Virus record (IMG/VR): IMGVR_UViG_3300029305_001665
DNA: 64,000 nt
Reading direction: 5' to 3' (one strand)
Source: a virus
Shown here: in pieces, positions 15,498-52,040 of the stretch
Position numbering within the stretch: the stretch's first letter is position 1
How the letters are laid out: each line of letters begins with the position of its first letter
Position numbers and translations under genes: made by a program
The notes under the pieces: model-generated
What the model was told of the DNA's origin: nothing
What the model saw: the letters and a program-made list of their open reading frames with translations, nothing else
Database searches by the model: none

Positions 15498-15503
15498 GAT
15501 TCG

Positions 15504-17135: not shown

Positions 17136-17136
17136 A

Positions 17137-32518: not shown

Positions 32519-33770
32519 TTTGATTTTCTCCTTCTAAAATTGGTTCTTCAGTCACCTCTTTAACTGGTGTAGGTGCCTCGCCTTCCGGATGGCTTATGTT
32601 ACTGTTGATAAGTTTGTCCGCCTTGGGATCGGTTGAAGGCTTTCTACCCATGATTTGCCTAATCTCATTCTTAGTTAAGATCTCATTTCTAGTTAACGTG
32701 TCTGCAGTTTTAGCAAGTTCAGAAGCAGGCATAAGAGCAAAGGGATCTCTGAAGTAGGAAATCGACTGGTTCTGTGACCGAGCAGTTTTGGTTAAAAATT
32801 TTCTTTTGAATTCGTTAACAATAGCCATTACCATAACTTTTACGGTGCGGTTAGTATAGTTAAGCATTGTTTTTTCGTCTGCGGTACCATCTAATATCGA
32901 CTGATGAAACGATAACTGGCTGTATAGCATGCTCGTTAGGTATTCAATCTGCTTCAATAGATTGTTCTCTACAGGTCGGTTCAATTGAGTGATACGCTCA
33001 GTACCGTCGGTATAAGCAATACCATACTTAGAACCGGACAATTGCACTTCTATATCTTTACGCCTTTTTTCGGCTTGTTCACGTCTTGCCTCTGATTTAA
33101 CAATGTATGGTAACTGGATGATTAAATCCAATTTACCCGAACCGCTTTGCTCATCTATTGCGTCCAACAATGTTAATTTCTTAACAAGTCGTTTCATAGT
33201 TGAGTTCGGTTCGTTCATGACCGCATAGAACGGGTTCTGGATGATAGCTACGCTCTCTTTAGGGAGTGTGACATCTTCATGCTTACCCGTGCGATCATTA
33301 TAAAGTTTTATTTTTACGTGACGAGGATACCATTGAATAATTTTGCCGGTTCGCATAGTCTTAATATCATACGATCCGGTTTTAGTGGGATCAACGTCAG
33401 TATCCACAGGGACCACCGCAACGACACCTTCATCAATCATTGACATAACAATATCTTGTATGAAGTCTTTATGCGTTTGGTCTATGTTAGCTTCAGTGTT
33501 CAAACAGTAATCTAATCCGCTCTTATAGTAGTCATTAAATCTACCTTCTTCGTCCAATACAACATGGCGAATATCCACATCTGCGACATCTAGAGCGATA
33601 CGGTTTGTAATAGCGGTTACAACAGTCTTTTCGTTACCACCGCTAAGTCGGACTCTGTCAGGTCGCGTGAAGTAACTTTGACCGAGGTCCATGGTATTAT
33701 AGTACATAGTGGGATCTCTGTTATTTACAAAGGCATTCCATCCATGTTTAATTCTGTCTAGTAATCCCAT
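32508..33770 (-). CDS. portal protein
   Basis: 420 aa. Immediately downstream of the terminase large subunit gene. Acidic C-terminal tail. Synteny-based call. Confidence 0.65.
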   Translation of the reverse strand: MGLLDRIKHGWNAFVNNRDPTMYYNTMDLGQSYFTRPDRVRLSGGNEKTVVTAITNRIALDVADVDIRHVVLDEEGRFNDYYKSGLDYCLNTEANIDQTHKDFIQDIVMSMIDEGVVAVVPVDTDVDPTKTGSYDIKTMRTGKIIQWYPRHVKIKLYNDRTGKHEDVTLPKESVAIIQNPFYAVMNEPNSTMKRLVKKLTLLDAIDEQSGSGKLDLIIQLPYIVKSEARREQAEKRRKDIEVQLSGSKYGIAYTDGTERITQLNRPVENNLLKQIEYLTSMLYSQLSFHQSILDGTADEKTMLNYTNRTVKVMVMAIVNEFKRKFLTKTARSQNQSISYFRDPFALMPASELAKTADTLTRNEILTKNEIRQIMGRKPSTDPKADKLINSNISHPEGEAPTPVKEVTEEPILEGENQNGA

Positions 33771-33784
33771 TTGGTGTTCTCCTT

Positions 33785-35530
33785 TTATTCAAAAGCATCT
33801 TTGTTAAGCTTATAAGCGATATACGCGTCCATCATTGCTGCAACAGCGTCGATTTTCTGGTCATAGCGCTTCTTGTATAATTTACGGTTTCCGTTGGTAT
33901 CTTCTATCGTGATACAGTTACCCATAGTAAAAGTCATTAGTGCTTCGTCGAAGAACAGCATTCTATCTTCTGCTAATTTCTTAAGTTCCCCTAAAGGAAC
34001 TGATTCTGTTCTAGAACCTTGAATGACTTTTTCAACTCCATAAGTACCATTCTCAGTTACCCAACGGTCGACGAAATCTTTGGCATTATACGGGTCATAT
34101 CCGAAGCAACGAACGTCGTATTGACTATTAATTATAAACGCATCTAAATCGTCGAATACTTCCATTGGGTCTAAAATAGTACCTTCTAAAACTATCAAAC
34201 TACCTTCTTTTATAAACTCTTCGTATTTCAAGCGCATTGCTCCGGGGAGTTTCATCATAGTTCTGGTTGTTATATAGTTTCTGGTCTTTACGCCGAATGC
34301 TCCATTTCCCAACGGGAATAAGAACGTAAATGCACAGAAGTCGTCACCTTGCGATAAGTCCGCGCCCAACGCGCATGGCATTTGCCAGAATTCTCTTTTT
34401 CTATGAGGCAACGTTTCTTCATAAGTGAAGTAGTACGTATAACCTTCTGCGGGTATACCGAAACGTTTAGCTAACGTATCATTCCTAACAGCAGGGTTAT
34501 TTTCCATTCTTTCTACTTCATCTTGGTACGTTTCGTAACTAACGGTCTTTCCTAAATTAGGATTTGCTTTAACCCACATTCTGGGGTCAGCTACTTCGTC
34601 GATTGAATCGAGTTTGTACCAAAAGATTGAAGTATGGATATCAGGATAGTCACCTTTAAGAATGCTAGCTAACTCCATTTTGATTGAATCGCCAGGTCCA
34701 TTACGTACAGTACCTTCTGAGCTAATAGCTAAGATGAGGAACTCCTCGTTCTTAGAAGCGCCTTGTTTTGCTGCACCGACGACATCTTCGGAGATGTCAC
34801 CAGACAACCATTCGTCCACTGATACAACTTTATCTTTACGACCTTGGTATTTATCAATAGTCATCGGGACGATTTCCAACAAAGAATTTGTCAGGAAATT
34901 CTGGATACCTTTTTTAGTACTTGCTAACTTCAAACGGTCAGCTTTTGAACCGGTGGTATTTTGTAATGATCCCTCGGTTAAGAACTTAAATAAAGGTCCT
35001 CTAGCCCTAGTTATTGATGTTTTTATCGGTCCTAATACTTCTTCTGCCTGTCTAGTTGTGGGTGCAGTAGTTGACTGTTGAGTAGTCGATGTGTCAATAT
35101 TAAGGAAGTAGCTATGTATGCATGACGCGTACATCGATTTGGCAGCGCCACGTCCTACTATTAAATATTGTCTATTGATTAGACGCTTCTTTATGGTTTT
35201 CTTGACATAGCGACCACCATGTCCATCTTTGCCAGGGACGTATACACTTCTGTCAACAAAGTAATACCAACCGAATATCTGCTCTGCCCAAAGTTTAAAC
35301 GAATCTAATAAGTGAAGATCGTCACCATTGGTTAATGTTAATTCGTTTTCACAATACGAAATAAACCCATCGATAGCTTGGTCGTCGTACCAAACACCTG
35401 GGTTTTTAATGAGTGCATCTATTCGGTTCATCTCCATAGAGATTTCACGGTTAACTGGTATTTCTCCTCTAAGTACGGCATCTCGAAACATGCCGTAATA
35501 CTTAGGGGTAGCTGTATTCGACAATGCCAT
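33785..35530 (-). CDS. terL: terminase large subunit
   Basis: 581 aa. Walker A-like LIVGRGAAKS and Walker B DEWL. C-terminal RNaseH-like nuclease acidic residues (GADLSQGDD, DQKIDAVAAMMDA). Confidence 0.9.
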   Translation of the reverse strand: MALSNTATPKYYGMFRDAVLRGEIPVNREISMEMNRIDALIKNPGVWYDDQAIDGFISYCENELTLTNGDDLHLLDSFKLWAEQIFGWYYFVDRSVYVPGKDGHGGRYVKKTIKKRLINRQYLIVGRGAAKSMYASCIHSYFLNIDTSTTQQSTTAPTTRQAEEVLGPIKTSITRARGPLFKFLTEGSLQNTTGSKADRLKLASTKKGIQNFLTNSLLEIVPMTIDKYQGRKDKVVSVDEWLSGDISEDVVGAAKQGASKNEEFLILAISSEGTVRNGPGDSIKMELASILKGDYPDIHTSIFWYKLDSIDEVADPRMWVKANPNLGKTVSYETYQDEVERMENNPAVRNDTLAKRFGIPAEGYTYYFTYEETLPHRKREFWQMPCALGADLSQGDDFCAFTFLFPLGNGAFGVKTRNYITTRTMMKLPGAMRLKYEEFIKEGSLIVLEGTILDPMEVFDDLDAFIINSQYDVRCFGYDPYNAKDFVDRWVTENGTYGVEKVIQGSRTESVPLGELKKLAEDRMLFFDEALMTFTMGNCITIEDTNGNRKLYKKRYDQKIDAVAAMMDAYIAYKLNKDAFE

Positions 35531-35543
35531 ATGTTATCACCGT

Positions 35544-36392
35544 TTATTTCTTTTTCTTTTTCTTTTCGGTTTCTTTTTTAGCTAATTTTACGCTGTTTCC
35601 GACGTATCGAGTGTTGAGCCAGCTACTTCCGCGATCGGAGCTATCTTTAACGTGATTATAAGGGTCTTCCATCGAGTACTCGCTAGATTCGGTCTTATAT
35701 TCGTAAGATGCTTCAGACTTGGTTTCTTTCTTAGGTTCTTCTTTCGGCTTTTCGTCAGATTTCTTCGGTTCTTCCTTCTTAGGTTTCTCTTCGGATTTCT
35801 TAGGCTCTTCTTTCGGCTTTTCGTCAGATTTCTTAGGCTCTTCTTTCGGCTTTTCGTCAGATTTCTTCGGTTCTTCCTCAGCCTCTTCCTCAGCCTTCTT
35901 TTCTTTCTTACCGAAAATCGCATCGTGCGCTTTCCTTGTCTTATCTAATGTCAGATCCTTTGCCTTACGCTTCTGCTCGGCCTTTTCCCTAAGTCCAAAT
36001 AAATTACCAAAGGGAGTCTTTTCATCGATTACGTCAGTAAGAGCATCTACGCCAGCATTGGCATAGTGATCCACGAATCTTTTAGCGGAGTTCTTACCGG
36101 TGTCGATCATTAGACCTTTAAACCATTCAGCTACTTTTTCTTTATTAGACATAGTAGCTTTTCTGTATCTTTCTTCCGCTTCTATACGAGACGTCACGTC
36201 GTTAATTTCCTTAGTGCTCATGGCTTTAAGGCTTTTGCGTTCTAACGTCTTCTTATAATCAGCATGTTCTTCGTCGTCATCGTTATCGGCTTTAGCTTGG
36301 GCACGTTTCTGGTTGAGCTCATACTGCTGCTTCTTTCTGTGACCCCATCGCATGCCGGGAACGCCATAATGGAGAAGTTCTTTATCATCCAT
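35544..36392 (-). CDS. Lys/Glu-rich tandem-repeat protein in the position where a terminase small subunit is expected
   Basis: 282 aa. C-terminal tandem repeats SDEKPKEEPKK, which are 33-bp DNA repeats around 35700..35890. No recognisable terminase-small-subunit HTH. Confidence 0.4.
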   Translation of the reverse strand: MDDKELLHYGVPGMRWGHRKKQQYELNQKRAQAKADNDDDEEHADYKKTLERKSLKAMSTKEINDVTSRIEAEERYRKATMSNKEKVAEWFKGLMIDTGKNSAKRFVDHYANAGVDALTDVIDEKTPFGNLFGLREKAEQKRKAKDLTLDKTRKAHDAIFGKKEKKAEEEAEEEPKKSDEKPKEEPKKSDEKPKEEPKKSEEKPKKEEPKKSDEKPKEEPKKETKSEASYEYKTESSEYSMEDPYNHVKDSSDRGSSWLNTRYVGNSVKLAKKETEKKKKKK

Positions 36393-36427: not shown

Positions 36428-37315
36428 TTAGCAGAAAATGTCCTGCCAAAACACAGGTTTATGAGTTGCTTTTAATCTATTATATGATGCAACAAATGCT
36501 GATTTAATACCATCAGTTAATTGATTTTCATGAGTGAAAAATTCTACGAATTTGTTAACATTAGCGTACTCAATATCAGTATTATATGAACCTGTATTAT
36601 ATAAGTTGCTACCTTCTTGTGTTCTCACAAAATGTAATTGAGTTGATGGGTCAAATAGATAATCGTGTTTATTAATATAAGTATTAAATTCTTCTTCTAA
36701 ATAATATGACTGTCTAATTCCACCATCTGATGCATTAATTGCTGCTAAAAACCCACGACAGCCGCAAGGCGCATCTCTCATCGCCTTACAAGCTTCTAAC
36801 GAACCTGCAAAGTTGTGTAAACGCGGTATTCTATCAATACATTCAGACGAACCGGTAATATTAATTAATGCGTTGATAGTTTTCGAGTAAGCTTCAGTCG
36901 CAGTTTCGGCAGTTGCAGAGGCGTAATTAATACCACTATACAATGCGTGAAAACCAAATTTTAACCAGCTACTATTCGCTTTAAATTCTGAACGCCAAGT
37001 AGTAGGAACCATATCAAGAGTGAAAGTTGGATTGCTCGATGCGTTCTGATAGAAGCAATAACAGCTAATAGTTACGCCAGTATCTTCATGAAATTTCTTT
37101 AGCCAAGCAAACATTGAATTGTCAAAAATCGACGCTGGTTTATTGTTTGTTAAATCTTCAAAAGCTAAATAAAAATCGTCTATTGAAAAATGACTATATT
37201 TGTTGTATTCGTCAGCAACAATCCAGTCTTCAATGTGATTGAAATGCTCAGCTTTTAACACTGTTCCCTCAGTAGTTTCTGTTTTATCTACAAATGTCTG
37301 ACGTTTATAAGCCAT
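36428..37315 (-). CDS. hypothetical protein (295 aa)
   Basis: Intact ORF with RBS. Confidence 0.45.
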   Translation of the reverse strand: MAYKRQTFVDKTETTEGTVLKAEHFNHIEDWIVADEYNKYSHFSIDDFYLAFEDLTNNKPASIFDNSMFAWLKKFHEDTGVTISCYCFYQNASSNPTFTLDMVPTTWRSEFKANSSWLKFGFHALYSGINYASATAETATEAYSKTINALINITGSSECIDRIPRLHNFAGSLEACKAMRDAPCGCRGFLAAINASDGGIRQSYYLEEEFNTYINKHDYLFDPSTQLHFVRTQEGSNLYNTGSYNTDIEYANVNKFVEFFTHENQLTDGIKSAFVASYNRLKATHKPVFWQDIFC

Positions 37316-37326
37316 ATACTACCACC

Positions 37327-38061
37327 TTATAATAATGTGAAATCAGCTAATGTTACAGTTGAGCTTGTAAAATTCGTATACATAAAGCCTGCGCATTTTT
37401 TCCAAGTTTCGTTCGCAACATACGTGCTGCAGTCAAAAGATGATTGAGTAACGCCGTTGACCGATAAAGTTGCGGTATTTCCACTCCATGTCACACTTAG
37501 AGTATCTCCTTGCGCGAATGTGCTTGTAGCGGCAGCATCAGTCGTTAATACTCCGCCGCCAAACGTTGTATAGTCATAACGTTGTAAGTTGGTGCCAATA
37601 TCAGCACCACGAGGACGAAACGCAAGTATGTTGCTATCGTATCTGCCGATGATAACCATACGTCCACCGTCGCTAGCAGATGCCGCGGGTGAAACAAAAC
37701 TAAAGTTTTGGTTAGTATTCTTCATAAATACGACAGCTTTATTATTAGTCGCTGTAACAGTAGGAACACCGTTTTCTTCTGTTACAGTGGCCAATCCGTC
37801 GGGCGAGTATACTTCCCATTCGGCTTCGCCTTCTTCTACTATATAAACAACCTCATTTGAATAATCGCTATCTTCATAACCATCTGCTTTTGCTTTAACA
37901 ACTAAAGTGTGTGAACCTGCTTCTAGATTTAATGCCGACACTTCAAAATTTATTTCACTTGAAGTTGTGAGTTCTGAATAAGTACCATCCGATGCTTTTT
38001 CATTGAGACTATACTGAGTCGCATTGGATACCGGATTTCCTTTTATATATGTTTTTGCCAT
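37327..38061 (-). CDS. Ig/FN3-like domain protein (244 aa)
   Basis: N-terminal beta-sandwich-like sequence (TLVVKAKADGYEDSDYSNEVVY). Confidence 0.4.
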   Translation of the reverse strand: MAKTYIKGNPVSNATQYSLNEKASDGTYSELTTSSEINFEVSALNLEAGSHTLVVKAKADGYEDSDYSNEVVYIVEEGEAEWEVYSPDGLATVTEENGVPTVTATNNKAVVFMKNTNQNFSFVSPAASASDGGRMVIIGRYDSNILAFRPRGADIGTNLQRYDYTTFGGGVLTTDAAATSTFAQGDTLSVTWSGNTATLSVNGVTQSSFDCSTYVANETWKKCAGFMYTNFTSSTVTLADFTLL

Positions 38062-38078
38062 TTTGATTTTTATCTCCT

Positions 38079-39227
38079 TTATTTATAAGTTACTTTAATT
38101 TCAATAGTTACTGTCTCGCCAACATATGACCCATATACCGTGCCAGAAACTTGATATATTCCTGAAGAGGTTTTAGAATACGAAAAATTATCGATGTTGT
38201 CGCCTATGGGTTCGAACGATTCGACCTCTCTATCAGTGTTAAACTGCGCCAATAACGCGCCCGTATAAAGTTGTGCAGCGCCAGGCACTTGAGTATCAAT
38301 CGTTACTGTATATGTTAATATTTCGCTACCTTCAAGTTCTTCAAGATATATTACAGGTGCTTCTAATTTCGGTAACGTGTCTTCTGTGGTTTCGAGATAA
38401 ATAACCGGAGTATCTAATTTAGTTACTATTGGTTCATCCGGTTCATCAGGAATTTCTTCCTCTATGGTTTCGAGGTAGATTTCAGGAGTATCTAATTTAG
38501 TTACTATTGGTTCATCGGGTTCATCAGGTTCGTCAGGTTCATCGGGAATTTCCTCCTCTATGGTTTCAAGGTAAATTACCGGTGTTTCCAATTTCAGAAC
38601 TTCAGGTTCATCTGGTTCATCAGGAATTTCTTCCTCTATGGTTTCAAGGTAAATTACCGGAGTTTCCAATTTCAGAACTTCAGGTTCATCTGGTTCTTCG
38701 TTAGATATAGTTTCGAGATAGATTTCAGGAGTATCTAATTTCAGAACTTCAGGTTCGCCCGGAGTTTCATCATATATATGTTCAAGGTAAATTACCGGTG
38801 TATCTAATTTTTCAAGCCCGGATATTTCGCTGTTACCCAGAACCGCACGGCCAAGTATAGCTCTACCTAGAATAGCACTAGAATTCGGTTGAACTTCTTC
38901 GTCAGTTTCAAGATAAATACTAGGCGTGTCTAGTTTTCTAAGTTCTACTTTCGCGAGCTCCAGTATCTTATCTGACAGGTCTAATACCGAGACATTAGCG
39001 TTAGTTTTTGATTTAACCCTATACGCATTAGCAATGTCGACCAATGTTTGGTGCTTTATTGCGTAAAACTCGTGCGTTGCTTCCTCGGCACTTCCCGTTA
39101 CTGTCCCGTCAATTAAAGTATTCGCCAAAGAGGATACTGGAATGTTCTCCGTTATACCGTATACTTGACGAATAGCATCGGCGATAGAAACAAGAGTTGA
39201 GCGCTGTATAAGGTAAATCGTAGACAT
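38079..39227 (-). CDS. acidic tandem-repeat protein
   Basis: 382 aa. Eight or more repeats of KLDTPVIYLETIEEEIPDEPDEP(E/I)V(L/T). Confidence 0.5.
   Translation of the reverse strand: MSTIYLIQRSTLVSIADAIRQVYGITENIPVSSLANTLIDGTVTGSAEEATHEFYAIKHQTLVDIANAYRVKSKTNANVSVLDLSDKILELAKVELRKLDTPSIYLETDEEVQPNSSAILGRAILGRAVLGNSEISGLEKLDTPVIYLEHIYDETPGEPEVLKLDTPEIYLETISNEEPDEPEVLKLETPVIYLETIEEEIPDEPDEPEVLKLETPVIYLETIEEEIPDEPDEPDEPDEPIVTKLDTPEIYLETIEEEIPDEPDEPIVTKLDTPVIYLETTEDTLPKLEAPVIYLEELEGSEILTYTVTIDTQVPGAAQLYTGALLAQFNTDREVESFEPIGDNIDNFSYSKTSSGIYQVSGTVYGSYVGETVTIEIKVTYK
38370..38830. repeat. imperfect tandem DNA repeats (~60-78 bp units) encoding the acidic peptide repeat
   Basis: Recurring ggtttcgaggta(g/a)at...tctaatttcagaacttcaggttcatc units. 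Confidence 0.6.
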
Positions 39228-39520
39228 TAGACGCTAACCTCCTCGGCATTATGTACTTCTATTGGCTCTAATTCGCCATTAGCATTTACTTTGTAGTAGT
39301 TGCCTTCTTCGTCAGATGCGACTTTAAGCGGCACATCGACGACAATAGTAGCTTTATATATTCCGTTATACTCTACATCAGGATACATATTGAATGTTCC
39401 GTTTTTGGTAATAGAGGTGGATTTTTCTTGTACTTTAAATTCTATTTCGCCAGTTCCCGCATGTCTATCCAATGCGGGCTTGGCTTCTTTTATAAATAAT
39501 TTTTCTAACCAATTGCTCAT
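39227..39520 (-). CDS. hypothetical protein (97 aa)
   Basis: Intact ORF with RBS. Its stop overlaps the next gene start. Confidence 0.45.
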   Translation of the reverse strand: MSNWLEKLFIKEAKPALDRHAGTGEIEFKVQEKSTSITKNGTFNMYPDVEYNGIYKATIVVDVPLKVASDEEGNYYKVNANGELEPIEVHNAEEVSV

Positions 39521-39523
39521 AAA

Positions 39524-41764
39524 TCACCTCTTAAATTTCCAGGGAACATAATCTTTTTTGCCGGTATAAAGAATATCGTGTTCTACAATATTATGAATGA
39601 TATGTTCTCTGAGAGTATCGTAGAATTGTACGGAGCCGTTCGCGTTTTGTGCTTCGCTTTGTTCTGCGATACGCAAACCGTAGAAAATTCTATCGGGAAC
39701 TTCGAGGTAGTCCTCTCTATTATTAAGAGATTTATCATGTTTAATAAATTTCATATCTTCAATATGATACATATTACTAAACCGATTGCCTACTAAAATA
39801 CCATTTGCGAAGAAACCGATATTATGTTCGGTCATCATATTAAAATATCTAACTGTTTTATCAGTCATAGGTTCGCAAGATACTACAATGGGCATACTAC
39901 CATCTTGTTTAAAGGTGTGTTCGCTTCCCATTTTGAAATTATTCGCATATATGAACTTTCCTTGCTCATAGTTAAAGAATCTATGGGAATTATGTTTTGC
40001 GCCAACAAGATCGATTTCAGTTCCGTCGCTAAGCACCGTATGCCAATATTTTGGCGAAACTCCCGGCGTCATAATCCAACACGGTTTTCTTGATTCTAAT
40101 TTACCTTCATCGAAGTTCCAAGTTAATAACTCATCATCGTAGGTAATTTCTTCGATAGGTTTAGTGCTACCGTCAGCAAGCGTAACCAGACTACCTTCTA
40201 CTATACATTCGTTGTATGCCGAACAAGATCCATCTGCGGTGACCTTTAATAAAGTCCAACCACTACCGGCGTCTTCCTCTGTTACACCAGAAGCATCTGA
40301 AATTATTACTCCGTAAGAGGAGGAATTGCCGACTAAATAAAGATATCCTGATGTACAGTCAACGGTGGTTGTACTAGAAATCGTTCCAAGAGAAGTTCCT
40401 GAAGCATCAGTTCCGTCATACACCGTAATTGAATTATATGTAGGGGTTATCGCAACCTTATATACAGTTCCAGTTTCACCTTCGTAGGTTCCCGTTACAC
40501 CTAAAATAACCACACCTTTTTTAATGTTTGCGGATAGTATATTAGGGTCTATCGCGGAAGTAACTCCTCTTATCGTTATTTTGTTAAATCCATCTACAGT
40601 AAAATTAGAAGAATCTATTGTATTATCCGATGTGCTGGGATCGACGTTAATTGCAGTTAAATTCATTTTATTAACAGTAACCGTCCCCAAACCGTCATAG
40701 CCTTCGTCAGCAGTTATTGTTTGGTCAGAAGTGGAAGGGCTTACCGTTTTGTCTTGTAATACCGGATCACCACTGGAAGGAACCGCTATAGTTGCGGTTA
40801 CTTTGCCAATGCCGTAATAACCTTCGGGAGTTTCTATAACATATTCTCCGTTTTCGGTTATTTCACCCGCATCGATATCTGTTAATTCGTGAACAGGCGG
40901 TTCGACATTTACCGTTACTTTACTCAGCCCATCGTAGCCTTCGTCTGCGGTATATTCTCCGTTGACCGTAGCGGTCTTTGTCTGTAAATTAGGATTAGGA
41001 TGCTGAACATGCACTATTACTTCTCCAAGACCGCAATAGCCGTTGTCTGGAGTAATTGTTACGTCCTCTTGTGTTATCGTTTCTTTATTTTGAAGTGAGG
41101 GTAGGATTAGTAAGGAATTGCGACACTGTTTATCTTCGGATGCTAACTCTACGCCATTTGTACTTGTTAAAGGTACTATATGCTCGAATAGCAATGCGAA
41201 GTATTCCGGATAAAATATCTCGGAAAATGAATTAGTAGAGACGCTTATCGGTTCATCGTGTTTTACTGCGCTGCAATAATGTCCAATCGTATCAAATTCT
41301 ACTTTATACCATCCTTCCTCAGTGTATGAAGTTCCTAAATCCTCGTTCACTTCGGGAAGATGCGCTGATGTAAAATACCAGTACGCATATTCAAAACCGT
41401 CACTCCTCACGGATAGCGTTGCTCTCGCTATACCGCTTTCTAATGCTCCTTGAGTGAAGTATATATAACCGTCAGAACGACCGTTAATCGTTAAATACCT
41501 TGCGACGCGTCTTTCGGCTTGTCCATCGTCATATTTAAATGTCGGTTTTTCGGGCATATTTGCCGATCGCAGATATCCATGAAAATAGTCAGTATAATCA
41601 AGCGCGCCGCCGTGGGTTGTATATTCGCCATTGTATACGGGTATATCGATAGTGACCGAATTTAACCCATACCAATGTTCGTCTGCCGTAACTACAGTGC
41701 CGTTTTCGGAAATTGTTTTATCCTGTAGTTTAGGCTCTATTAATAATTTTTTAAATGTTGCCAT
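39524..41764 (-). CDS. fibre-like repeat protein with C-terminal Hint (Hedgehog/intein-like, BIL-type) domain
   Basis: 746 aa. Internal (D/E)GYDGLG.VTV.V repeats. C-terminal block CIVEGSLVTLADGSTKPIEEI matches intein block A, Cys codon at 40205..40207. TPGVSPKYWHTVL is a TxxH-like block. FFANGILVGN is a degenerate C-terminal block with no downstream nucleophile. Confidence 0.55.
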   Translation of the reverse strand: MATFKKLLIEPKLQDKTISENGTVVTADEHWYGLNSVTIDIPVYNGEYTTHGGALDYTDYFHGYLRSANMPEKPTFKYDDGQAERRVARYLTINGRSDGYIYFTQGALESGIARATLSVRSDGFEYAYWYFTSAHLPEVNEDLGTSYTEEGWYKVEFDTIGHYCSAVKHDEPISVSTNSFSEIFYPEYFALLFEHIVPLTSTNGVELASEDKQCRNSLLILPSLQNKETITQEDVTITPDNGYCGLGEVIVHVQHPNPNLQTKTATVNGEYTADEGYDGLSKVTVNVEPPVHELTDIDAGEITENGEYVIETPEGYYGIGKVTATIAVPSSGDPVLQDKTVSPSTSDQTITADEGYDGLGTVTVNKMNLTAINVDPSTSDNTIDSSNFTVDGFNKITIRGVTSAIDPNILSANIKKGVVILGVTGTYEGETGTVYKVAITPTYNSITVYDGTDASGTSLGTISSTTTVDCTSGYLYLVGNSSSYGVIISDASGVTEEDAGSGWTLLKVTADGSCSAYNECIVEGSLVTLADGSTKPIEEITYDDELLTWNFDEGKLESRKPCWIMTPGVSPKYWHTVLSDGTEIDLVGAKHNSHRFFNYEQGKFIYANNFKMGSEHTFKQDGSMPIVVSCEPMTDKTVRYFNMMTEHNIGFFANGILVGNRFSNMYHIEDMKFIKHDKSLNNREDYLEVPDRIFYGLRIAEQSEAQNANGSVQFYDTLREHIIHNIVEHDILYTGKKDYVPWKFKR

Positions 41765-41765
41765 T

Positions 41766-43679
41766 TTATTCCTCCGTTATGCTCTCCGACGTACCCTGGA
41801 CTGCGTATACTATGTCATCTCCGGTAACTTTGATTACACGATAATTTTCATTATCTTCTATTTTTTCAGTATTTTCATATAGACTAATGAATGTGTACCA
41901 ATCATACGTATCGGTAGTAATTTTACGAGCCTGATCGAAATATATAGTATGATACTCTTCACCTTTATATGACGGTATTAATGCGTAATTCGAATCAGAA
42001 AGTATATTACCGCCTATAGTAGCTGAAAAACTACCTAAAGTTTCGTCCGGATTATCGTAAACTTTGAATTCTTTAGTTCCGGACTCTCCAATTACTAACA
42101 CTTTATATGAGTCGCTGGCAGGCTTTTGATCTTGCCCTGTTTCCGGTACGATGGTGATCTCTCCATCGCTTTCGACTAAAAATATAGCGCTGTCATTAGT
42201 CACATCCAAATAAGTAATATTTCCGGTTATATTTTGTATGTTTAACCAGCTATATTCATCCATAGGGTTTTCTAACTTAACGCATAAAAGTTTACTAGAA
42301 CAAGAAACCGTAGCAATATCTTGTCCATTATAACCTAAAGGACCTTGCAATAGATTTATTAGCTCCGAATGCAATATATCTTCGGTATCCATAGCATAGA
42401 CGCCTATTTCGCCCCATGTATCTTCGGGTACATTTATCGTTACGATATACTCGTTCGAGTCGGATACATTATCATCGTCGATTTTCATAATACCTGTTTC
42501 GACATGAATTGTTGCTTCGCCGTTAACGTTAAATTTAATAGCTGACGTACCGGTTGTTGACTCAGTCTCAATGTCTCCTGTACAATTAAAGTCGGAGAAA
42601 AATGGATGATAATCATCATTTCGGTCTTTCATTACTATATATAAGCATCCAGAAGTACATGTTACCTCAACGTTTGTTTTGTAATATGGATACTCTTCCA
42701 ATTTACCAACCAATGTTTCTTCTGATATACCATCTGGAGACGATGTATCGTAAACAAATATCGTTCCTTTGCGAGTATTTCCAGAAGTTATAGATACAGA
42801 ATGTTCGAACATTTCCGGATCTTCCGTCTCCTCTTCTTTTCGATTAGTAGTTGCGACGGCAGTTATACTGGCATCGCTATTAACTTTGAATAGTCGTCCG
42901 ATTCTACTCGATGAAATAAGAGTCATGTTCCCTGAAGTTACGTTTACTGTTTCCCATTCTACGGCATCGGTTACATCTAATTCGAAATATAAGTAGCCAG
43001 TTTTGCAAATTACGCCCGCTTTTGCGTAAACGGACTCTTTACCTCCGCCGAACACTGCGACGCAGTTTTCTTCTCTTGCCTGAAGATTATCATCGGTATC
43101 GTATACTCGGAATTTACCGGAGTTTATGTTCTCGGCGTCAATAATAACAACATATGCGGGGTCGTCACTTGGAACGATGATTTTCTCAGTCGAAACGTAG
43201 ACATCACCGTCAGTATTTACCTTTATTATTTTATAGTTAGACTCGTCTTCGATTAATTCTAGATCTCCGTTTCTAATGGATATGCTTTTAATTTCATTAT
43301 CGTACCCATCTTTGACTTTGATAAATAAATATCCTGATATACATTCGACAATATCCTTTGTTACTATATCTAATTTACCATTAGGAAGAAATGTTAACGG
43401 ATCTCTTAAAGCTCGCACTCCATCGCTATCATATATCTCAAATGGAGTACATGAAATGTTAGTTGTTATGGCGACCTCTGGTCTTAACATATAATATGTA
43501 TACTGAATGTATTTGTCGGTAGTCTGACCAATATAGTAATATACGCGTTCGAAATTTTTTTTGGTATATCTTTCTAATATTTCATCCATTTTATACGCGC
43601 TGTCTATTACTATCGGCACACCTTCAGGAGGCGAGACTAGACTTGCGAAAAAATATTTTTTGTCGTTAAAATAAATCAT
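41766..43679 (-). CDS. multi-domain repeat protein, paralog of the 43722..44525 gene
   Basis: 637 aa. Shares the N-terminus MIY(F/Y)NDKK with its neighbour. About six copies of a ~90-aa module ending in (V/I).C(T/K/I)(S/T)G(Y/F/C)L(Y/F). Confidence 0.5.
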   Translation of the reverse strand: MIYFNDKKYFFASLVSPPEGVPIVIDSAYKMDEILERYTKKNFERVYYYIGQTTDKYIQYTYYMLRPEVAITTNISCTPFEIYDSDGVRALRDPLTFLPNGKLDIVTKDIVECISGYLFIKVKDGYDNEIKSISIRNGDLELIEDESNYKIIKVNTDGDVYVSTEKIIVPSDDPAYVVIIDAENINSGKFRVYDTDDNLQAREENCVAVFGGGKESVYAKAGVICKTGYLYFELDVTDAVEWETVNVTSGNMTLISSSRIGRLFKVNSDASITAVATTNRKEEETEDPEMFEHSVSITSGNTRKGTIFVYDTSSPDGISEETLVGKLEEYPYYKTNVEVTCTSGCLYIVMKDRNDDYHPFFSDFNCTGDIETESTTGTSAIKFNVNGEATIHVETGIMKIDDDNVSDSNEYIVTINVPEDTWGEIGVYAMDTEDILHSELINLLQGPLGYNGQDIATVSCSSKLLCVKLENPMDEYSWLNIQNITGNITYLDVTNDSAIFLVESDGEITIVPETGQDQKPASDSYKVLVIGESGTKEFKVYDNPDETLGSFSATIGGNILSDSNYALIPSYKGEEYHTIYFDQARKITTDTYDWYTFISLYENTEKIEDNENYRVIKVTGDDIVYAVQGTSESITEE

Positions 43680-43721
43680 TAAAAAACCTCCTGAAGTACT
43701 CTAAACACATAATTATTATGT

Positions 43722-44525
43722 TTATCGTTCATAATGTGTATTTGTTTCGACGTGTATCGCACAGCCATCTGCAGTGATATAAAATATTAACCGATTATAT
43801 TCCGGTGTCATTCCGAAATGCACGTTTTCGCTGTAAGAATATTTAGAAAACCATAAATACTCTTCGTTAACGGGCAACGTGATACACAAAACATTTTTTG
43901 TGCACTGCAATGTTATTTCAGTAATATAATCTGGATAACTTTCCAGCGTTGCAACTAGATTTTCTTCATTATCTAATCCGTCATATATAAATATAGATCC
44001 AAAACGAGTATTTGCAGATGTTATCGTTACCGTAGGATATTTAGTATGCATAACAATCGAAACTGGACAATTAATTTTCGTGCACCAATAACGATTATTG
44101 ACGCCGCCGAATATAGAAATTATACTGTCTTGATCGGTCGCTATGTGCTCGCTAAAATATCCGGCTTCATCTTTTGCTATTTCGAAATACAAGAAACCGG
44201 ACGTACACGAAACGGTTATACTTTCTAGACCATTAACAGTGCCCAACAACGTTCCAGCATTTGAAGTTCCATCGTATATATTAAACGACGGAGTATCGGT
44301 GTCAAATTTAGAAATTGTTACATCCGGAAATAACTTATACCAACTGTTTTGCTCATATTGCTCGGTAGAAGGTCCGCAATAATGGTATATTTTATAATAG
44401 TTTTCTTTTTCAGTACCATTTAATAATGCTGTCATTTCAGCTTCGGTAAGAACCGGTTTAGTCATGCCCAGAACGTCTTTCGTATATTTTATTAGTGCGG
44501 TTTTTTTGTCGTTATAATAAATCAT
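43722..44525 (-). CDS. repeat-domain protein, short paralog of the 41766..43679 gene
   Basis: 267 aa. Two copies of the CTSGxLY-type module. Confidence 0.5.
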   Translation of the reverse strand: MIYYNDKKTALIKYTKDVLGMTKPVLTEAEMTALLNGTEKENYYKIYHYCGPSTEQYEQNSWYKLFPDVTISKFDTDTPSFNIYDGTSNAGTLLGTVNGLESITVSCTSGFLYFEIAKDEAGYFSEHIATDQDSIISIFGGVNNRYWCTKINCPVSIVMHTKYPTVTITSANTRFGSIFIYDGLDNEENLVATLESYPDYITEITLQCTKNVLCITLPVNEEYLWFSKYSYSENVHFGMTPEYNRLIFYITADGCAIHVETNTHYER

Positions 44526-44543
44526 GTAATACCGTCCTATATA

Positions 44544-47354
44544 TCATGTTTTTATCATACTATCAAATAAACAGTAATACATATCATAGTCACTTGGATC
44601 GCCTAAATATGCCGGTATGAATTCGAGATCTAAAGAGAAGTATTCGCCCACCTTATCGCGATCCGCTACGTTTCCTTTAATTCCGATATTCAAATTTACA
44701 CATTCTATTTCAAGGGTATGATTTTCATCGATCGGTTTTCCTTCGTTCAATACCCTTGTCGCAATTGTTATTGACAATACTTCGGAACTATTATATGCAC
44801 CACTTGAATCGCCCCGCACCATCTTTAATATTTTTACCCTATATTGCGTATCGGGGTACGGAACTACGTAATTATCTGTCGGATTTAGACGTAATGTCGT
44901 AGTCTTTTTTGTAAAACCGCTAAACCAAATAGGCTTTGTAGTAACAACTTTTCTAGAACCTGGTATTAGTGTTTGTTTAAACTCTTCTAATTCATACTGT
45001 CTGCTGATTCTTAGTAATTTCGCGATACCGTTATTTGGCACTGATAGTACTTTATATAATTCTTTTATTCTAGGATCCATAATGTAATCTCCCAGCGAGA
45101 CATTATCGACTATATGAGGATAGACTATTTCATTTAATGGTTTTTCAAACGCCTCATATGTTGGGGTAATTCCTTCTAGTTTATTAACCGGGGCGTCGCT
45201 AGCTCCCCAATATACAGTTAACGTAGCGGATTTAGATGGGGCGCCCATCTCGTAATAATACGATTTTACTTTAATATCGATTGACTTATCTACAATACCT
45301 AATGGATCGTAATCATATGTCGTTTCTTTATTACAAAATTTCACAACGTCATCGACATTATATTCACTTCCTTGAAAACCTTTAGAATATATAGAAGTAC
45401 ATATGTAACCATATAAAGTGTATACAAGTTTATTGAGATAATACTGACCTGATGGATGCAGTTCGCCGTACACTGCATCAACTCCTACTTGGCAACAAAT
45501 ATCTCTCATGATACCGTCGCCGTCATATTGATCAGGTCTTGTTAAATCGTTTTTCTTGTTTTTGAAACGGGTGTATGCATTCGATTTAGTGGAGAAACCT
45601 CTGAGTTCTACTGGTTTTGTCTCTCCATCCATGGTTACGAATACTGCTTTTGGCATGTAATTACTGGGTAATTGACTATACGTTGACGTCGTTAGAAATA
45701 TTTCAGCAGATCTATTGGCGAAAGAACTCTTATTTTTGTTTTTCATGTCCTTATATTCAGTTACATGCTGTATTATTGGCTCCGTGCCATTAGCATCATA
45801 GTAAAAACGTTTTGTCCAGTATCTTCCCGAATTGTCAGTATTCGAATCGTTGCTCGGTTGCGGTCTCGTAGATTCTGGGAATTTGATGTACGTATTGGAT
45901 CTTAGACCGTTATTGTCGTAAATATATAGTGGATTACCGTTGGCGTCATAATATTGATAACAGACCAGTTCATCTTTTATTGGCGAAACTTCTGGGAACT
46001 CAAAATCATAAGTAGTTACCATATAACTCGATGAATTATTGTTATACATCACATGCTGTTTATATTCGTCAACCACGATACCTTTCTCTAAGTAATCTAC
46101 CGTGTTCATGGTATTACTTAAATGTTCACGTGTCGTTTCTAATGATGTTTGTATATTCTCGTAGTTTTTATCAAGTTTTTCGATAGTTTCCGTAATGTAA
46201 TTCACGTCACTGTAATCGTCCGTAACAACACTAAGAATGTTCATATTATTAACGACGGCTTCGCCGTGTTTATTTTTTAAATCGTTGATTTCTTTCTCAT
46301 ATTGTTTACTTGTACCCGCGAACATCCATACGTCAGTTCCGTCAATTGTTTCTACATGATCATTCGGAGGATTTGGTAGTCTGAAATCTATTACGGGACT
46401 AGCCGGATTAGCGTTGTTAATATCAATGCTGGCAACCGGATTTTCTGCAGTCACATACTCTACTCTACCAACAGATAATTTAGGCGTTTCGCCGGTATCA
46501 CCCTTCTCGCCCTTTAGCGAAGAAATCGCTATTAAGTTTGTCCAGTTTTCGGGAGCATCTTCAGCATCACAGAGTTTCCATTGAATGTAGCCATCTGATG
46601 CTCTTAATTCGATATTATCGCCTTGTTCACCTTTTAGAGATAAGGACTCAACGACGGTACCGTCTATTTTATTTGTTATCTGGAGGATATTCTTCTCGCC
46701 GTAACCAGGATCGGTGGGATCTAAACTCAAATCTTCGACCCAGTCAAAGCTAGGAACAACTAATTTATTAAAACCTACGATATAATCGGGTGTTTCATCG
46801 GTTAATAAATCGTTATTGTTCATTCCTTTCATAACTTGAAGTACTTCGCAAATAGCGGTTGACCAGTTATAAAGAATTACACCATAAGTAGAAGGATCTT
46901 TGGGATCTGCGTTTGCACCAGCGTCAGTGCATATAAAATGAACTACGAATTCTATGTTACCAGCATATTGGGTAGCATTATTTGATATGTCCCATGAGAA
47001 ACGAAGCACTTCTTCGCCGTCATAATCTGTGGTATTGGGGTATACTTCAAGGTCCGTGACGTTGTATATATCTCTCCTCTTTTCGCTAGTAGTGGCTCCG
47101 GAATTGCGATAGTGAATTTGTACTATATTACACTCGCGCATGTCGTGGCCGTTAATATATCTTGGGATATCAAATACCATTTTAGTACTATTGGTTTCGT
47201 ACTGCATCAACGTATGTTTTTCAGTTTCTACAAATTCTTGCTCAGCTTTATCCCAAACAACGTGTATGATGCTTCTATCTTCGGGATTTATCGTGAAATC
47301 GAGTTCTTCGAATTTCATTATATCGACATTTTTAGTGTGTCCGTCTAAAGGCAT
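44544..47354 (-). CDS. large fibre-like protein with collagen-like Gly-X-Y triplets
   Basis: 936 aa. LKGEQGDNIE and LKGEKGDTGETPK collagen-like triplet runs, as often seen in phage fibres. Confidence 0.5.
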   Translation of the reverse strand: MPLDGHTKNVDIMKFEELDFTINPEDRSIIHVVWDKAEQEFVETEKHTLMQYETNSTKMVFDIPRYINGHDMRECNIVQIHYRNSGATTSEKRRDIYNVTDLEVYPNTTDYDGEEVLRFSWDISNNATQYAGNIEFVVHFICTDAGANADPKDPSTYGVILYNWSTAICEVLQVMKGMNNNDLLTDETPDYIVGFNKLVVPSFDWVEDLSLDPTDPGYGEKNILQITNKIDGTVVESLSLKGEQGDNIELRASDGYIQWKLCDAEDAPENWTNLIAISSLKGEKGDTGETPKLSVGRVEYVTAENPVASIDINNANPASPVIDFRLPNPPNDHVETIDGTDVWMFAGTSKQYEKEINDLKNKHGEAVVNNMNILSVVTDDYSDVNYITETIEKLDKNYENIQTSLETTREHLSNTMNTVDYLEKGIVVDEYKQHVMYNNNSSSYMVTTYDFEFPEVSPIKDELVCYQYYDANGNPLYIYDNNGLRSNTYIKFPESTRPQPSNDSNTDNSGRYWTKRFYYDANGTEPIIQHVTEYKDMKNKNKSSFANRSAEIFLTTSTYSQLPSNYMPKAVFVTMDGETKPVELRGFSTKSNAYTRFKNKKNDLTRPDQYDGDGIMRDICCQVGVDAVYGELHPSGQYYLNKLVYTLYGYICTSIYSKGFQGSEYNVDDVVKFCNKETTYDYDPLGIVDKSIDIKVKSYYYEMGAPSKSATLTVYWGASDAPVNKLEGITPTYEAFEKPLNEIVYPHIVDNVSLGDYIMDPRIKELYKVLSVPNNGIAKLLRISRQYELEEFKQTLIPGSRKVVTTKPIWFSGFTKKTTTLRLNPTDNYVVPYPDTQYRVKILKMVRGDSSGAYNSSEVLSITIATRVLNEGKPIDENHTLEIECVNLNIGIKGNVADRDKVGEYFSLDLEFIPAYLGDPSDYDMYYCLFDSMIKT

Positions 47355-47368: not shown

Positions 47369-47704
47369 TTAATTGCTTTCTGCGTTTATGTTTAATCTAA
47401 ATTCATACTCTTTAAGTTGGTCTTTTAACGCTTCGACCACAAATGAACTTGAAGGCGGATCAAATATTAATCTACATTTAATATAAATGTAAGTTTTAAC
47501 CGCCGTCATTTTACTATAACTTTCTTCGAGGAAGTCGGTCCAAGTCTCGCCCTCTCCAGTTACCATAAAACCTTCTTTGCCGACACCGATTTGGTTCAAC
47601 GCCATGATAGCAGAGTTAATTTCTATAATGATGTCTTCATCGAAATAGGTGTATTCTTGTACAGGACCGAGTTTCTTTTTAATTGATAAAAGTATTGACT
47701 CCAT
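47369..47704 (-). CDS. hypothetical protein (~111 aa)
   Basis: Internal ATG (MESILLS) with an AGGAGAAA RBS is preferred over the upstream in-frame start. Confidence 0.4.
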   Translation of the reverse strand: MESILLSIKKKLGPVQEYTYFDEDIIIEINSAIMALNQIGVGKEGFMVTGEGETWTDFLEESYSKMTAVKTYIYIKCRLIFDPPSSSFVVEALKDQLKEYEFRLNINAESN

Positions 47705-47717
47705 TTTGAATTTCTCC

Positions 47718-48146
47718 TTACTTCTTCCATGGACAGGTGTCGTTTTTAGTCCTCTCAACTGGATCTTTCACCAGTAAATCTTCTGTTCCATAATGTATAG
47801 CATTATGGGTATTATGAGATACGCAAATTAGATACTCAGGGTTGTAGACTAAATCGCTGTCGTTTTCGATATCTTCAAGGGTTATAGGGTTCATATGATG
47901 GACTATGATTTTGTCGTAGATTTCTCTATCTTTGATTCCAAGATCGCACCCGTTGTCCCTGATAATTACTTTACGTCTAGATTCTTGCCACTTTTTAGAT
48001 CGCTGGTATAGATATTGATTGATTGCTCTGTCCCAACCAAACGTGTCTTGACCAACGACACCTCTGAGTTGTAAGTATCTAAAACGTTCTTCGAAAGTTG
48101 GCAACCTGCGGAGTTCAGAGTATGTTCTAATATACATCGTCTTCAT
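47718..48146 (-). CDS. HNH endonuclease
   Basis: 142 aa. C-terminal VHHMNPITL...CVSHNTHNAIHYG matches the HNH motif (His-Asn-His with flanking Cys/His). Confidence 0.75.
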   Translation of the reverse strand: MKTMYIRTYSELRRLPTFEERFRYLQLRGVVGQDTFGWDRAINQYLYQRSKKWQESRRKVIIRDNGCDLGIKDREIYDKIIVHHMNPITLEDIENDSDLVYNPEYLICVSHNTHNAIHYGTEDLLVKDPVERTKNDTCPWKK

Positions 48147-48738: not shown

Positions 48739-49017
48739 TCACTCATCGTCGCCTTCATCTGTCATTTCTGCAGTATTCATGTAGATTTTCTTGTAAATAT
48801 GTAAAGGATCGTGATAAATTATTTCATCAATTGCTCTTTCTGTTTCGATTTTTACTTCTTCTTCAGTCATGTTATCTTTAATCTTTGCGATTCGATCTAA
48901 GTAACCACAAGAATTGTAACCTTTTTCAATGTCAAACAAGAACCAAGCTTTAAAGTCATCGAAAGGATTGAAAGGATTGTCAATTGTAGTTAACATACAT
49001 TGTTTTCTCATAATCAT
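48739..49017 (-). CDS. hypothetical protein (92 aa)
   Basis: Start overlaps the stop of the polymerase-like gene by 4 nt. Confidence 0.4.
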   Translation of the reverse strand: MIMRKQCMLTTIDNPFNPFDDFKAWFLFDIEKGYNSCGYLDRIAKIKDNMTEEEVKIETERAIDEIIYHDPLHIYKKIYMNTAEMTDEGDDE

Positions 49018-52000: not shown

Positions 52001-52040
52001 GATTCATAATGTTAGCCCTCCTCGTTTTCGATTTTGTCAA
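49014..52040 (-). CDS. YonO-like single-subunit RNA polymerase (two double-psi beta-barrel domains), fused to N- and C-terminal HTH domains
   Basis: 1008 aa. Residues ~530 contain SGADFDGDTVMCIPTHD, which matches the universal beta-prime catalytic NADFDGD (approx. nt 50434..50448). Residues ~300-330, VDGTHYVKGMAVHTDDEMPEGVDIIFNTNKPSTKSKM, parallel the beta-subunit motif GNKGV.SKI.P.EDMPY...G.PVDIVLNPLGVPSRMN. An HTH lies at ~100-125 (LGPTEIGRRMGRSESTVRGWL) and another at the C-terminus (YSLEEIAKKMGKSPSTVSKYLKG). Confidence 0.55.
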   Translation of the reverse strand: MTKSKTRRANIMNPIAEDILMHYGVKFRSGRYPWGSGDTPYQHGEDFLARVEELKKQGFKENAESIKREFGITMKQYRNEKALAQYERDSLLIDRAKSLSEDGLGPTEIGRRMGRSESTVRGWLEPNSDAKIKECVALIDHIRTQVDKNKMVDVGKGVDKELHISEERLDLALHALQREGYPVYNRRVEQSTNAGFQTTNKIICSPGTEYAEVYKPGADIHPLNEEHYVAKEGGTKFKKFEYPASMDSSRIKIRYVDEVGPDGFTGGDKDGTVEIRRGVKDVSLGNDHYAQVRILVDGTHYVKGMAVHTDDEMPEGVDIIFNTNKPSTKSKMEVLKEIDKKNPDNPFGALIMPEGQSYYTDENGKEQLSLINKKSSEGDWSEWQDALPSQFLGKQSLALINKQLDLAKTDKRAEFEEICALENPTIKKYFLAKFADECDSAAVHLKAAALPGQKYHVILPINTLKDNEVFAPQYENGTKLALIRYPHAGTFEIPVLTVNNKNALGSKWIGKQSIDAVGINKKIADQLSGADFDGDTVMCIPTHDPTGKVKIVHRPPLKDLEGFDPKLAYPEVPGMRYMKDPKTGKDNTQMEMGKISNLITDMNLNGASEDELARAVRHSMVVIDAGKHKLDYKKSEKDNDIKSLRATYQIKVMDNGEIKYGGASTLLSRAKSEVSVLKRQGSPKINIKGTDWYDPTKPEGANVYKLADDLYYPEDRHYDKNTSMQTLRTTNGKKLSYNTKDPAAVEKYALLEEKDPKTGKYAPVLTTDPATGEPAYSNKDRTIFYRAKARTQKSTAMMETDDALSLLSPKGDVKEKAYANYANEMKALANEARKTLYFEKDIQVNKEAKKTYANEIATLKASLNEALKNAPRERYAQRQADAAGALMKLDDPNIKAKELSKRKTQVLQNARAEVGSVSRKDRNIDISDREWEAIQAGAIGASTLNAILANTDIDKLRERATPKATTTVTQNQISRMKALAASNYSLEEIAKKMGKSPSTVSKYLKGVK

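Follow-up and report, generated by a model that had tools for sequence, protein, structure and literature searches.

The 64,000-nucleotide viral DNA of IMG/VR record IMGVR_UViG_3300029305_001665 (the whole of it is called the window below) carries on its minus strand, at 39524..41764, a gene whose product, according to the list of open reading frames (ORFs) and computed masses, is a precursor of 746 amino acids (aa) and 82.6 kDa comprising a cargo part, a Hint (Hedgehog/intein-like) domain and a tail. The domain at aa 520–660 (39785..40207, minus strand), delimited by profile, AlphaFold2 model and structure matches, is a member of the HINT superfamily. Judging by its conserved residues, the protein probably cleaves itself at Glu519|Cys520, and hydrolysis of the thioester would free the cargo from the Hint-plus-tail part. 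The chemistry is familiar, and the family is large, uncurated and uncharacterised. In the searchable literature, we found no Hint cassette described on phage fibre or adhesin proteins, only phage enzymes with true inteins and toxins with PT-HINT.

The Hint domain and its conserved residues

Scanned singly against Pfam, PHROGs and NCBIfam, neither the full 746-aa protein nor its C-terminal 227 aa produced a meaningful match, and a sequence-only search of the PDB returned chance-level matches only (a dipeptidyl peptidase exclusion domain, E 0.1). A homolog search yielded 18 relatives, two of which have precomputed matches to PF01079. When the resulting 19 sequences were scanned one at a time, PF01079 Hint was reached by five (best E 8.7e-8), Hom_end_hint (PF05203) by four, and Intein_splicing (PF14890) by two. 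A profile built from all 19 aligns with solved Hint chains along the whole domain, best with Tetrahymena bacterial intein-like (BIL) domain BIL2 (6tmm/6y75; E 1.9e-6); it also matches PDB 8w20, an "intein C-terminal splicing domain-containing protein", with E 2.7e-5. The AlphaFold2 model of aa 489–746 has a mean predicted local distance difference test score (pLDDT) of 82, rising above 90 across the Hint domain, and its closest solved structure is again Tetrahymena BIL2, while the identity to solved BILs is only 17–19%. An earlier note on this DNA had proposed a Hint profile search as a check; the single sequence matched nothing in Pfam, PHROGs or NCBIfam, whereas the relatives, the family profile and the model all show a Hint domain. 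As the family-level and structural evidence overrules the failure of the single-sequence scans, the assignment stands, and the Hint fold of aa 520–660 is secure. The Pfam Hint models miss most family members.

The sequence quoted in the earlier note is present exactly at 39785–40207, on the minus strand, and its translation is CIVEGSLVTLADGSTKPIEE...FFANGILVGN. In the numbering of the 746-aa protein, which is used throughout, aa 520–660 read CIVEGSLVTLADGSTKPIEEITYDD...NIGFFANGILVGN and are followed by an 86-aa tail. Residues were counted in two samples, 170 domains of the best hits and 98 independent domains from fetched loci. Cys520 (40205..40207, minus strand), Cys1 of the Hint domain and by its conservation the predicted nucleophile at the predicted scissile bond Glu519|Cys520, is Cys in 168 of the 170 domains, the other two having gaps, and in 88/88 aligned independent domains. 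The next conserved site is the block-B pair His594-Arg595 (39980..39985, minus strand): the His is found in 164/170 domains and in all 96 aligned independent ones, and the Arg in 153/170 and 70/98, respectively. Asn642, which occupies the position of the intein block-F Asp, is kept in 163/170 and 87/98. Cys1 and the His are invariant wherever they align, despite sampled family sequences being down to ~30% identical (range ~30–70%), and the residues of the thioester-forming step at the N-terminal junction are under strict constraint. The earlier note had named a Hint domain with an N-terminal Cys nucleophile, and this agrees with the fold obtained by profile and model and with the conservation of Cys520, its catalytic role being predicted. 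Of the TxxH-like block that had also been proposed, the His is there (H594, then R595), but the Thr three residues before it is absent from both the query (HNSH) and the family (gap, G, D or N).

The C-terminal end of the domain follows other rules. The block-G-like end FANGILVGN (aa 652–660; 39785..39811, minus strand), assigned from family residue counts, contains the motif F-A-N-G-I-L, which is kept in the family, while the next two residues are not intein-like: the query Hint ends in Gly-Asn where inteins end in His-Asn. The penultimate position 659 is S in 121, G in 39 and H in 5 of the 170 domains (S90/G5 of the 98 independent ones). At position 660, the last of the Hint domain, we counted C99/N23/S19/T10/L7 of 170 and C34/N15/T14/L10/S5/M3 of 98, and at the +1 position, 661, R127/K14/G7 of 170 and R58/G13/K11/P7 of 98, the query having R661. 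Thus, the residues for Asn cyclisation and for trans-esterification to +1 are absent from the conserved set. With Arg at +1, the domain lacks an extein nucleophile behind it, as the earlier note had stated, and without such a nucleophile or a conserved His-Asn it is better described, again in agreement with that note, as an autoprocessing domain of the BIL/Hedgehog type than as a true intein. The suggestion that its main role is to release or mature the ~90-aa tail was not supported, the last Hint residue being free to vary (C/N/S/T/L/M/D/Q) and the penultimate His being replaced by Ser or Gly. Since the conserved chemistry (Cys1 and the block-B His) is at the N-terminal junction and the C-terminal end is free to vary, the released product would be the 519-aa N-terminal part.

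The Hint domain is followed by a 42-aa extension (aa 661–702; 39659..39784, minus strand), delimited by its conservation and a pLDDT of 87–91. It reads R-F-S-N-M-Y-H-I-E-D-M-K-F-I-K...YGLRIAEQ in the window protein, and the family consensus is R-x-(N/S)-N-x-Y-P-I-x-D-M-K-(F/Y)-V-K-D ... Y-x-G-L-R-L-A-E-Q. Its conservation equals that of the catalytic residues (of 170 domains, N664 in 159, Y666 in 158, I668 in 155, M671 in 150, R698 in 122, and E701 in 125), and the pattern repeats in the independent-locus sample. AlphaFold2 models it as a beta hairpin with short helices. No PDB structure aligns to it, and structurally it is matched by a further BFVD member of the family only. Such strong conservation suggests that the extension is more than a passive linker. 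The distal tail (aa 703–746; 39527..39658, minus strand) is a His-rich helix (EHIIHNIVEHD) with a pLDDT of 52–77; the column occupancy here is below 50%, meaning that it exists in only a subset of family members. The stop codon is at 39524–39526.

A C-terminal cassette in phages and bacteria

When 1.84 billion cluster representatives (50% identity clusters) were searched exhaustively with the profile, 11,077 matched at E<=1e-3, 4,468 at <=1e-10, and 1,245 at <=1e-30. Architectures were counted in the best 150 of the 11,077 together with the first 18 relatives. In all of these, the module is C-terminal, with a median of 12 residues past the profile end and a preceding part of 2–2239 aa. Two proteins have multiple modules: P0019 ends in two complete Hint-plus-extension modules in tandem, and P0053 has up to six Hint repeats, some of which reach the NCBIfam intein N- and C-terminal models. 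Of 90 members scanned at E<=1e-3, 16 matched Hom_end_hint and eight matched PF01079, and no Pfam, PHROG or NCBIfam model covered the module as such in the members scanned. BFVD contains two relatives with generic automatic names; the BFVD entry A0A3G5A239 (Gaeavirus sp.) aligns over 224 columns, covering both the Hint domain and the extension. A tblastn search of 50,697 GenBank phage records with the full protein or the family consensus gave no match, and the Hint domain plus tail gave weak matches only, to true inteins in Vibrio phage helicase genes.

The N-terminal 519 aa, searched separately, have more than 1,100 homologs, the common part being only the repeats at aa ~220–440. Of the 118 listed cargo homologs, a single one, the ortholog P0162, carries the Hint domain; the others terminate in LRR_5, DUF285 or other domains, and none of the 118 is a Hint-less allele joining the cargo to the tail. 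With one carrier in 118, the cassette is a swappable module rather than an insertion in a conserved host protein. Other members have as cargo Listeria-Bacteroides repeats, Kelch propellers, He_PIG immunoglobulin (Ig) domains, LRR_5, YadA head and RCC1, with PHROG matches to tail fibre, minor tail, virion structural and Hoc-like head decoration families. At the BLAST level, where distant families could be missed, no neighbour family occurs in more than ~10 of ~95 loci, that is, we found no conserved partner gene.

The cargo of the window protein can be divided into three parts, all on the minus strand. The first, aa 1–219 (41108..41764), is by homolog coverage a lineage-specific region, covered by merely ~4–30 of the 118 listed N-terminal homologs. 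No signal peptide was seen at the N-terminus, and the full-length AlphaFold2 model is unreliable for aa ~40–330, so that the cargo fold was not called from that model. The second part, aa 220–440 (40445..41107), also delimited by homolog coverage, consists of repeats of the type "...QT(I/V)T(A/P)D.GY.GL..VTV...", and aa ~260–400 are covered by all 118 listed homologs. The third part, aa 441–519 (40208..40444), found by a hidden Markov model (HMM) and AlphaFold2 (pLDDT ~73–91), is a beta domain of ~80 aa that ends in ...SAYNE519 and abuts the predicted scissile bond; its HMM matches 34/162 family proteins and two upstream neighbour genes. The repeats, the context and the relatives suggest a virion fibre or adhesin as the cargo, and the earlier note was right in placing the domain near the C-terminus of a phage protein with fibre/adhesin-like repeats. 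The identical 746-aa protein is found on 21 metagenomic contigs, with unchanged neighbours.

Among gut phages, the cassette is carried by siphovirus-like, crAss-like and jumbo-sized contigs. In particular, P0013 sits in a crAss-like structural block, P0007 comes directly after a tape-measure gene and a Prophage_tail/Peptidase_S74 gene, and P0010 adjoins Mtd_N fibre-like genes and an amidase. Around the cassette in 38 IMG/VR loci, virion structural, tail-fibre, tail-spike and minor-tail families are over-represented, as is phrog_19976. The 110-kb contig of P0010 also encodes, a few genes upstream (L001:2589–4979, plus strand), a 796-aa protein with a true intein (Intein_splicing, LAGLIDADG_3), hence the two types of Hint domains coexist in one element.

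In species-representative genomes, all 57 loci are from uncultured assemblies, nearly all labelled as metagenome-assembled genomes (MAGs). They are mostly from Clostridia, the rest including gut "Alphaproteobacteria", Erysipelotrichaceae and Tenericutes. The commonest Pfam families of neighbours in the MAG loci are mainly housekeeping (SecA, aminoacyl-tRNA synthetases, Hsp70/DnaJ, PGK, MreB), SecA being adjacent in four loci. About ten members start with type-IV-pilin-like class III signal sequences, five (P0009, P0054, P0064, P0098 and P0111) have twin-arginine (TAT) signals, SRRDALKLLGAAAGA..., and P0146 has a lipobox. The TAT signals and the lipobox mean that the cassette is also used on exported bacterial proteins. 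We had considered a family restricted to phages and prophages, and this was rejected by the exported bacterial members and the housekeeping neighbours. So the cassette serves both exported bacterial surface proteins and phage virion-surface proteins; the window protein is of the phage kind, without a signal sequence. The 42-aa conserved extension, the widespread swappable cassette and the exported bacterial carriers had all been missed in the earlier note.

Two further occurrences are worth recording. The Clostridia MAG contig CALXXE010000022.1 (L005:96–6124, plus strand) encodes three consecutive paralogs, ~60% identical, each ending in a Hint domain plus extension, and the two complete ones open with the type-IV-pilin-like signal KGITLIALIVTIIVLIILAG. 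Close relatives of the cassette are also recorded under giant-virus MAG labels (L085 and L097, IMG/VR GVMAG contigs, and the Gaeavirus entry in BFVD); these may be genuine giant-virus genes or mis-binned phage or bacterial DNA.

The window itself is a tailed-phage genome with ~39% GC and nearly all genes on the minus strand. PHROG matches identify the large terminase (33785–35530, minus strand), the portal (32508–33770), and tail proteins with a tail fibre (10285–19794); a 634-aa ORF at 30614–32518 has the head maturation protease family as its sole PHROG match. Between the head and tail genes, a 2316-aa ORF (19797–26747) is taken, from its size and position, to be a putative tape measure. The target gene is outside the tail-tip block, upstream of the terminase, within an unannotated gene run (36428–47354) that comes after a Phage_connect_2 gene (47369–47758, E 8e-33) and contains a protein of 936 aa that weakly matches a tail-assembly PHROG (phrog_19976). 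Human faecal phage contigs are among the closest relatives of the window terminase. Streptomyces phages (RosaAsantewaa, HotFries and others) also have terminases that match it at ~74–75% identity along the entire protein, which is unusually close for such different hosts.

Several neighbouring genes have repeats of their own. The motif "..VYD...C.SGYLY....(V/I)TGG....V..DG.I" of the pre-Hint beta domain occurs in ~4–5 copies in the 637-aa upstream neighbour (41766–43679, minus strand) and in ~2 copies in the next, 267-aa gene (43722–44525, minus strand); as the domain recurs in both upstream neighbours, one domain type is common to three consecutive genes. A 97-aa gene (39227–39520, minus strand) that starts 4 nt past the target stop has, by eye, one copy of the cargo-repeat motif, KSTSITKNGTFNMYPDVEYNGIYKATIVVDVP. 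A 382-aa protein (38079–39227, minus strand) has about eight very acidic tandem repeats "KLDTP(V/E)IYLET(I/T)EEE(I)PDEPDEP" and no family match. The product of the gene just upstream of the terminase (35544–36392, minus strand) has a DUF7211 N-terminal motif (GVPGMRWGHRK), a Lys/Glu-rich tract (EEPKKSDEKPK, repeated) and a poly-Lys C-terminus. Finally, a 1008-aa protein (49014–52040, minus strand) with a C-terminal helix-turn-helix-like region matches phrog_4291 (E 0, 1096 bits), labelled "RNA-dependent RNA polymerase" in PHROGs, a label that looks odd within the replication block of a dsDNA phage.

Proposed processing and its alternatives

In the mechanism we propose, the precursor would consist of variable, repeat-rich virion-surface cargo (aa 1–519) and a C-terminal self-processing cassette, the latter comprising the Hint domain (aa 520–660), the conserved extension (aa 661–702) and an optional distal tail. 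Cys520, aided by His594, would attack the Glu519–Cys520 peptide bond, and the N-to-S acyl shift would produce a thioester that is then resolved, most simply by water. Two products are expected, a mature cargo of 56.2 kDa that ends at a new C-terminus and a Hint-plus-tail fragment of 26.5 kDa. The cassette is autonomous, without a conserved partner gene, and is exchanged among diverse phage and bacterial cargo proteins, its logic resembling that of Hedgehog/Hog or of a cleavage-only BIL domain. In a phage, the role may be akin to that of a removable C-terminal fibre module, as in the unrelated Peptidase_S74 intramolecular chaperones. The assembly-chaperone role raised in the earlier note is possible.

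What the analysis shows is the fold of the module, its conserved residues, its layout and its spread; the cleavage itself, its site and the resolution of the thioester are predictions. N-terminal cleavage is favoured because the residues of the first step are invariant wherever they could be aligned in the two samples, while those required for C-terminal cleavage or splicing are not conserved. It is also supported by the module being always C-terminal behind 2–2239 aa of cargo, by the cargo domains being unrelated surface-binding folds, and by the phage-borne copies sitting among virion, tail-fibre and tail-spike genes. There are precedents for stopping at this stage, as Hedgehog uses the first N-S acyl shift only, and BILs without a +1 nucleophile yield mainly cleavage products (PMC7664689, PMC4031507).

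Several observations weigh against this proposal. The TxxH Thr is missing, and the intein block-F Asp is replaced by an invariant Asn (N642); hence catalysis may differ in detail. The residue at −1 is Pro in ~16–22% of members, and Pro at this position disfavours N-terminal cleavage in some inteins. Plain hydrolysis leaves the strong conservation of the 42-aa extension unexplained. Asn660 is the last residue of this particular Hint domain and may allow additional C-terminal cleavage in this protein. As for the reading of the cargo as a virion fibre, the window protein itself has no PHROG or Pfam match, and the AlphaFold2 model of its first ~330 aa is poor.

The conservation of the extension, on par with the catalytic residues, and its confident modelling against the Hint domain would be accounted for by ligation: the Cys520 thioester would be captured by a nucleophile that the extension recruits, in the manner of an "adduct recognition region" (ARR), and the cargo would be joined to a protein lysine or a small molecule. 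We consider this possible but unlikely. The cargo-Hint-extension layout mirrors the HhN-Hint-SRR layout of Hedgehog (PMC12054796, PMC2362128), where SRR is the sterol recognition region, and Tetrahymena BIL2, to which the Hint domain is closest among solved structures, conjugates its N-terminal ubiquitin-like cargo to Lys through isopeptide bonds (PMC8616854). Unusually for phage fibres, it is the C-terminus that is conserved, and the commonest last Hint residue is Cys (99/170), at a spacing from the conserved Asn equal to that of C143 in Hedgehog; it is through a branched thioester on C143 that the Hedgehog cargo goes to cholesterol (PMC12054796). However, the query has Asn, not Cys, at the C143-equivalent spacing, and the alignment to the Hedgehog "SC" is not significant, the local alignment score being equalled or exceeded by 121/500 shuffles. 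Nor does the extension, with its high charge, resemble a sterol- or lipid-binding region. The search of ~95 loci for a conserved partner gene was negative, and the spread of the cassette over unrelated phage lineages and bacterial TAT- and pilin-type exported proteins makes a common protein acceptor unlikely. Also unlikely is the broader notion of a prokaryotic or viral counterpart of the Hog or BUBL BIL2 "dispensing platform" that would weld adhesin cargo onto a lysine of the virion or cell surface or onto an envelope molecule. The C-terminal junction offers another outcome, in which cyclisation of Asn660 would free the 86-aa (10.5-kDa) tail as a functional product, alone or together with N-terminal cleavage. 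The window protein and its closest fragment homolog, P0002, do end the Hint domain with Gly-Asn, some functional inteins lack the penultimate His (PMC3556154, citing a Gly-Gln end), and A-type BILs cleave C-terminally via Asn (PMC4031507). Yet the last residue changes to D, C, S or Q already in the closest relatives, with L and M occurring in the family, and just 5/170 domains have the penultimate His. The first half of the tail is conserved and, in the model, packs against the Hint domain instead of standing apart as a product of its own, while the variable, cargo-like end of the family proteins is the N-terminal one. All this renders tail release quite improbable.

The losses in the active site could also be read as those of a dead Hint domain, retained at the fibre's distal end for structure, binding or oligomerisation, without any processing: the TxxH Thr, the block-F Asp and the His-Asn end are all gone, Pfam Hint models miss most members, and Pro is frequent at −1. 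What makes this improbable is that every aligned member of the two samples, at ~30–70% identity, has Cys precisely as its first residue and retains the block-B His. Even less can be said for a PT-HINT domain releasing a C-terminal toxin or for a true (mini-)intein that splices, both of which we regard as very improbable. Hint domains beside C-terminal toxins are known (PMC3239186), and the profile match to 8w20 is to a protein named after intein splicing. But the family has a short conserved C-terminus and a polymorphic N-terminus, whereas in polymorphic toxins it is the other way round; a search of the ~95 loci turned up no conserved downstream (immunity) gene, and PF07591 was matched by only 1/90 members. 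As for splicing, there is no +1 nucleophile, conserved Asn or homing endonuclease, and the lack, among the 118 cargo homologs, of a Hint-less allele linking cargo to tail rules out a true intein.

Hint domains have so far been known from inteins, Hedgehog and a few bacterial BILs. If the cassette is self-cleaving, it sets the true mature C-terminus of many predicted receptor-binding and adhesin proteins, which matters for host-range prediction, virion proteomics and the engineering of receptor-binding proteins. Protein chemistry would also gain a new source of small Hint domains that only cleave, and a prokaryotic family with the cargo-Hint-extension layout would bear on the origin of Hedgehog autoprocessing. 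Should ligation be true instead, phages and bacteria would have an ATP-independent, enzyme-free way of covalently attaching surface modules.

Comparison with known systems

The cassette differs from class 1 mini-inteins (DnaB, gp41-1) in that the +1 nucleophile is missing, neither a terminal Asn nor a penultimate His is conserved, it does not interrupt a conserved host protein, and there is no Hint-less allele. Hint_2 (PF13403), PT-HINT (PF07591) and Vint (PF14623) are likewise found on secreted or repeat-rich bacterial proteins, some of them at the C-terminus. The cassette lacks features by which class 1 inteins, A-type BILs and PT-HINT are defined.

BIL domains, such as Tetrahymena BUBL BIL2 (6tmm/6y75) and the Clostridium thermocellum BIL (2lwy), also have Cys1 and the block-B His and no +1 nucleophile. 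Like the cassette, they reside in the variable parts of proteins that are not conserved and often exported, and are expected to cleave rather than splice. Only the cassette, however, is always at the extreme C-terminus with a conserved 42-aa extension. By the published definitions (PMC4031507), type A BILs share with it the missing +1 nucleophile, but their defining His-Asn end is absent from the cassette. Type B BILs, in which cleavage is uncoupled from splicing, are said to have intein-like N-terminal motifs and to be without block-G similarity (PMC4031507), whereas the cassette has a clear FANGIL, the N-terminal motifs being present; because of this intein-like block G, the cassette fits the B-type only loosely.

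Peptidase_S74 domains of fibres and spikes offer a functional analogy only, that of a C-terminal module removing itself after assembly. The fold and the chemistry are unrelated (a Ser-Lys dyad, as opposed to the predicted Cys thioester), there is no sequence or structural match, and much of the cassette cargo (Kelch, LRR, Ig) needs no trimerisation.

The remaining comparison is with Hedgehog/Hog (Hint plus SRR/ARR; PF01079). The cassette differs from it in being prokaryotic or viral, in having no Gly at −1 and no TxxH Thr, and in its charged extension, which is not sterol-binding-like. Homology of the extension to the Hedgehog SRR was not detected by the family HMM, which aligned blocks A–B only, or by the structure search. 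The consensus end of the cassette, ...NGILTSC, has the spacing of the Hedgehog ...NSVAASC (C143), in an alignment that is not significant; Cys is at the C143-equivalent spacing in 99/170 and 34/98 family domains, and the window protein has Asn660 there. On the other hand, Hedgehog PF01079 is the Pfam model matched by most close homologs (5/19), and chemistry that stops after the acyl shift is predicted for the cassette too. The layout is the same in both, with variable cargo followed by a Cys-first Hint domain and then by a conserved C-terminal extension.

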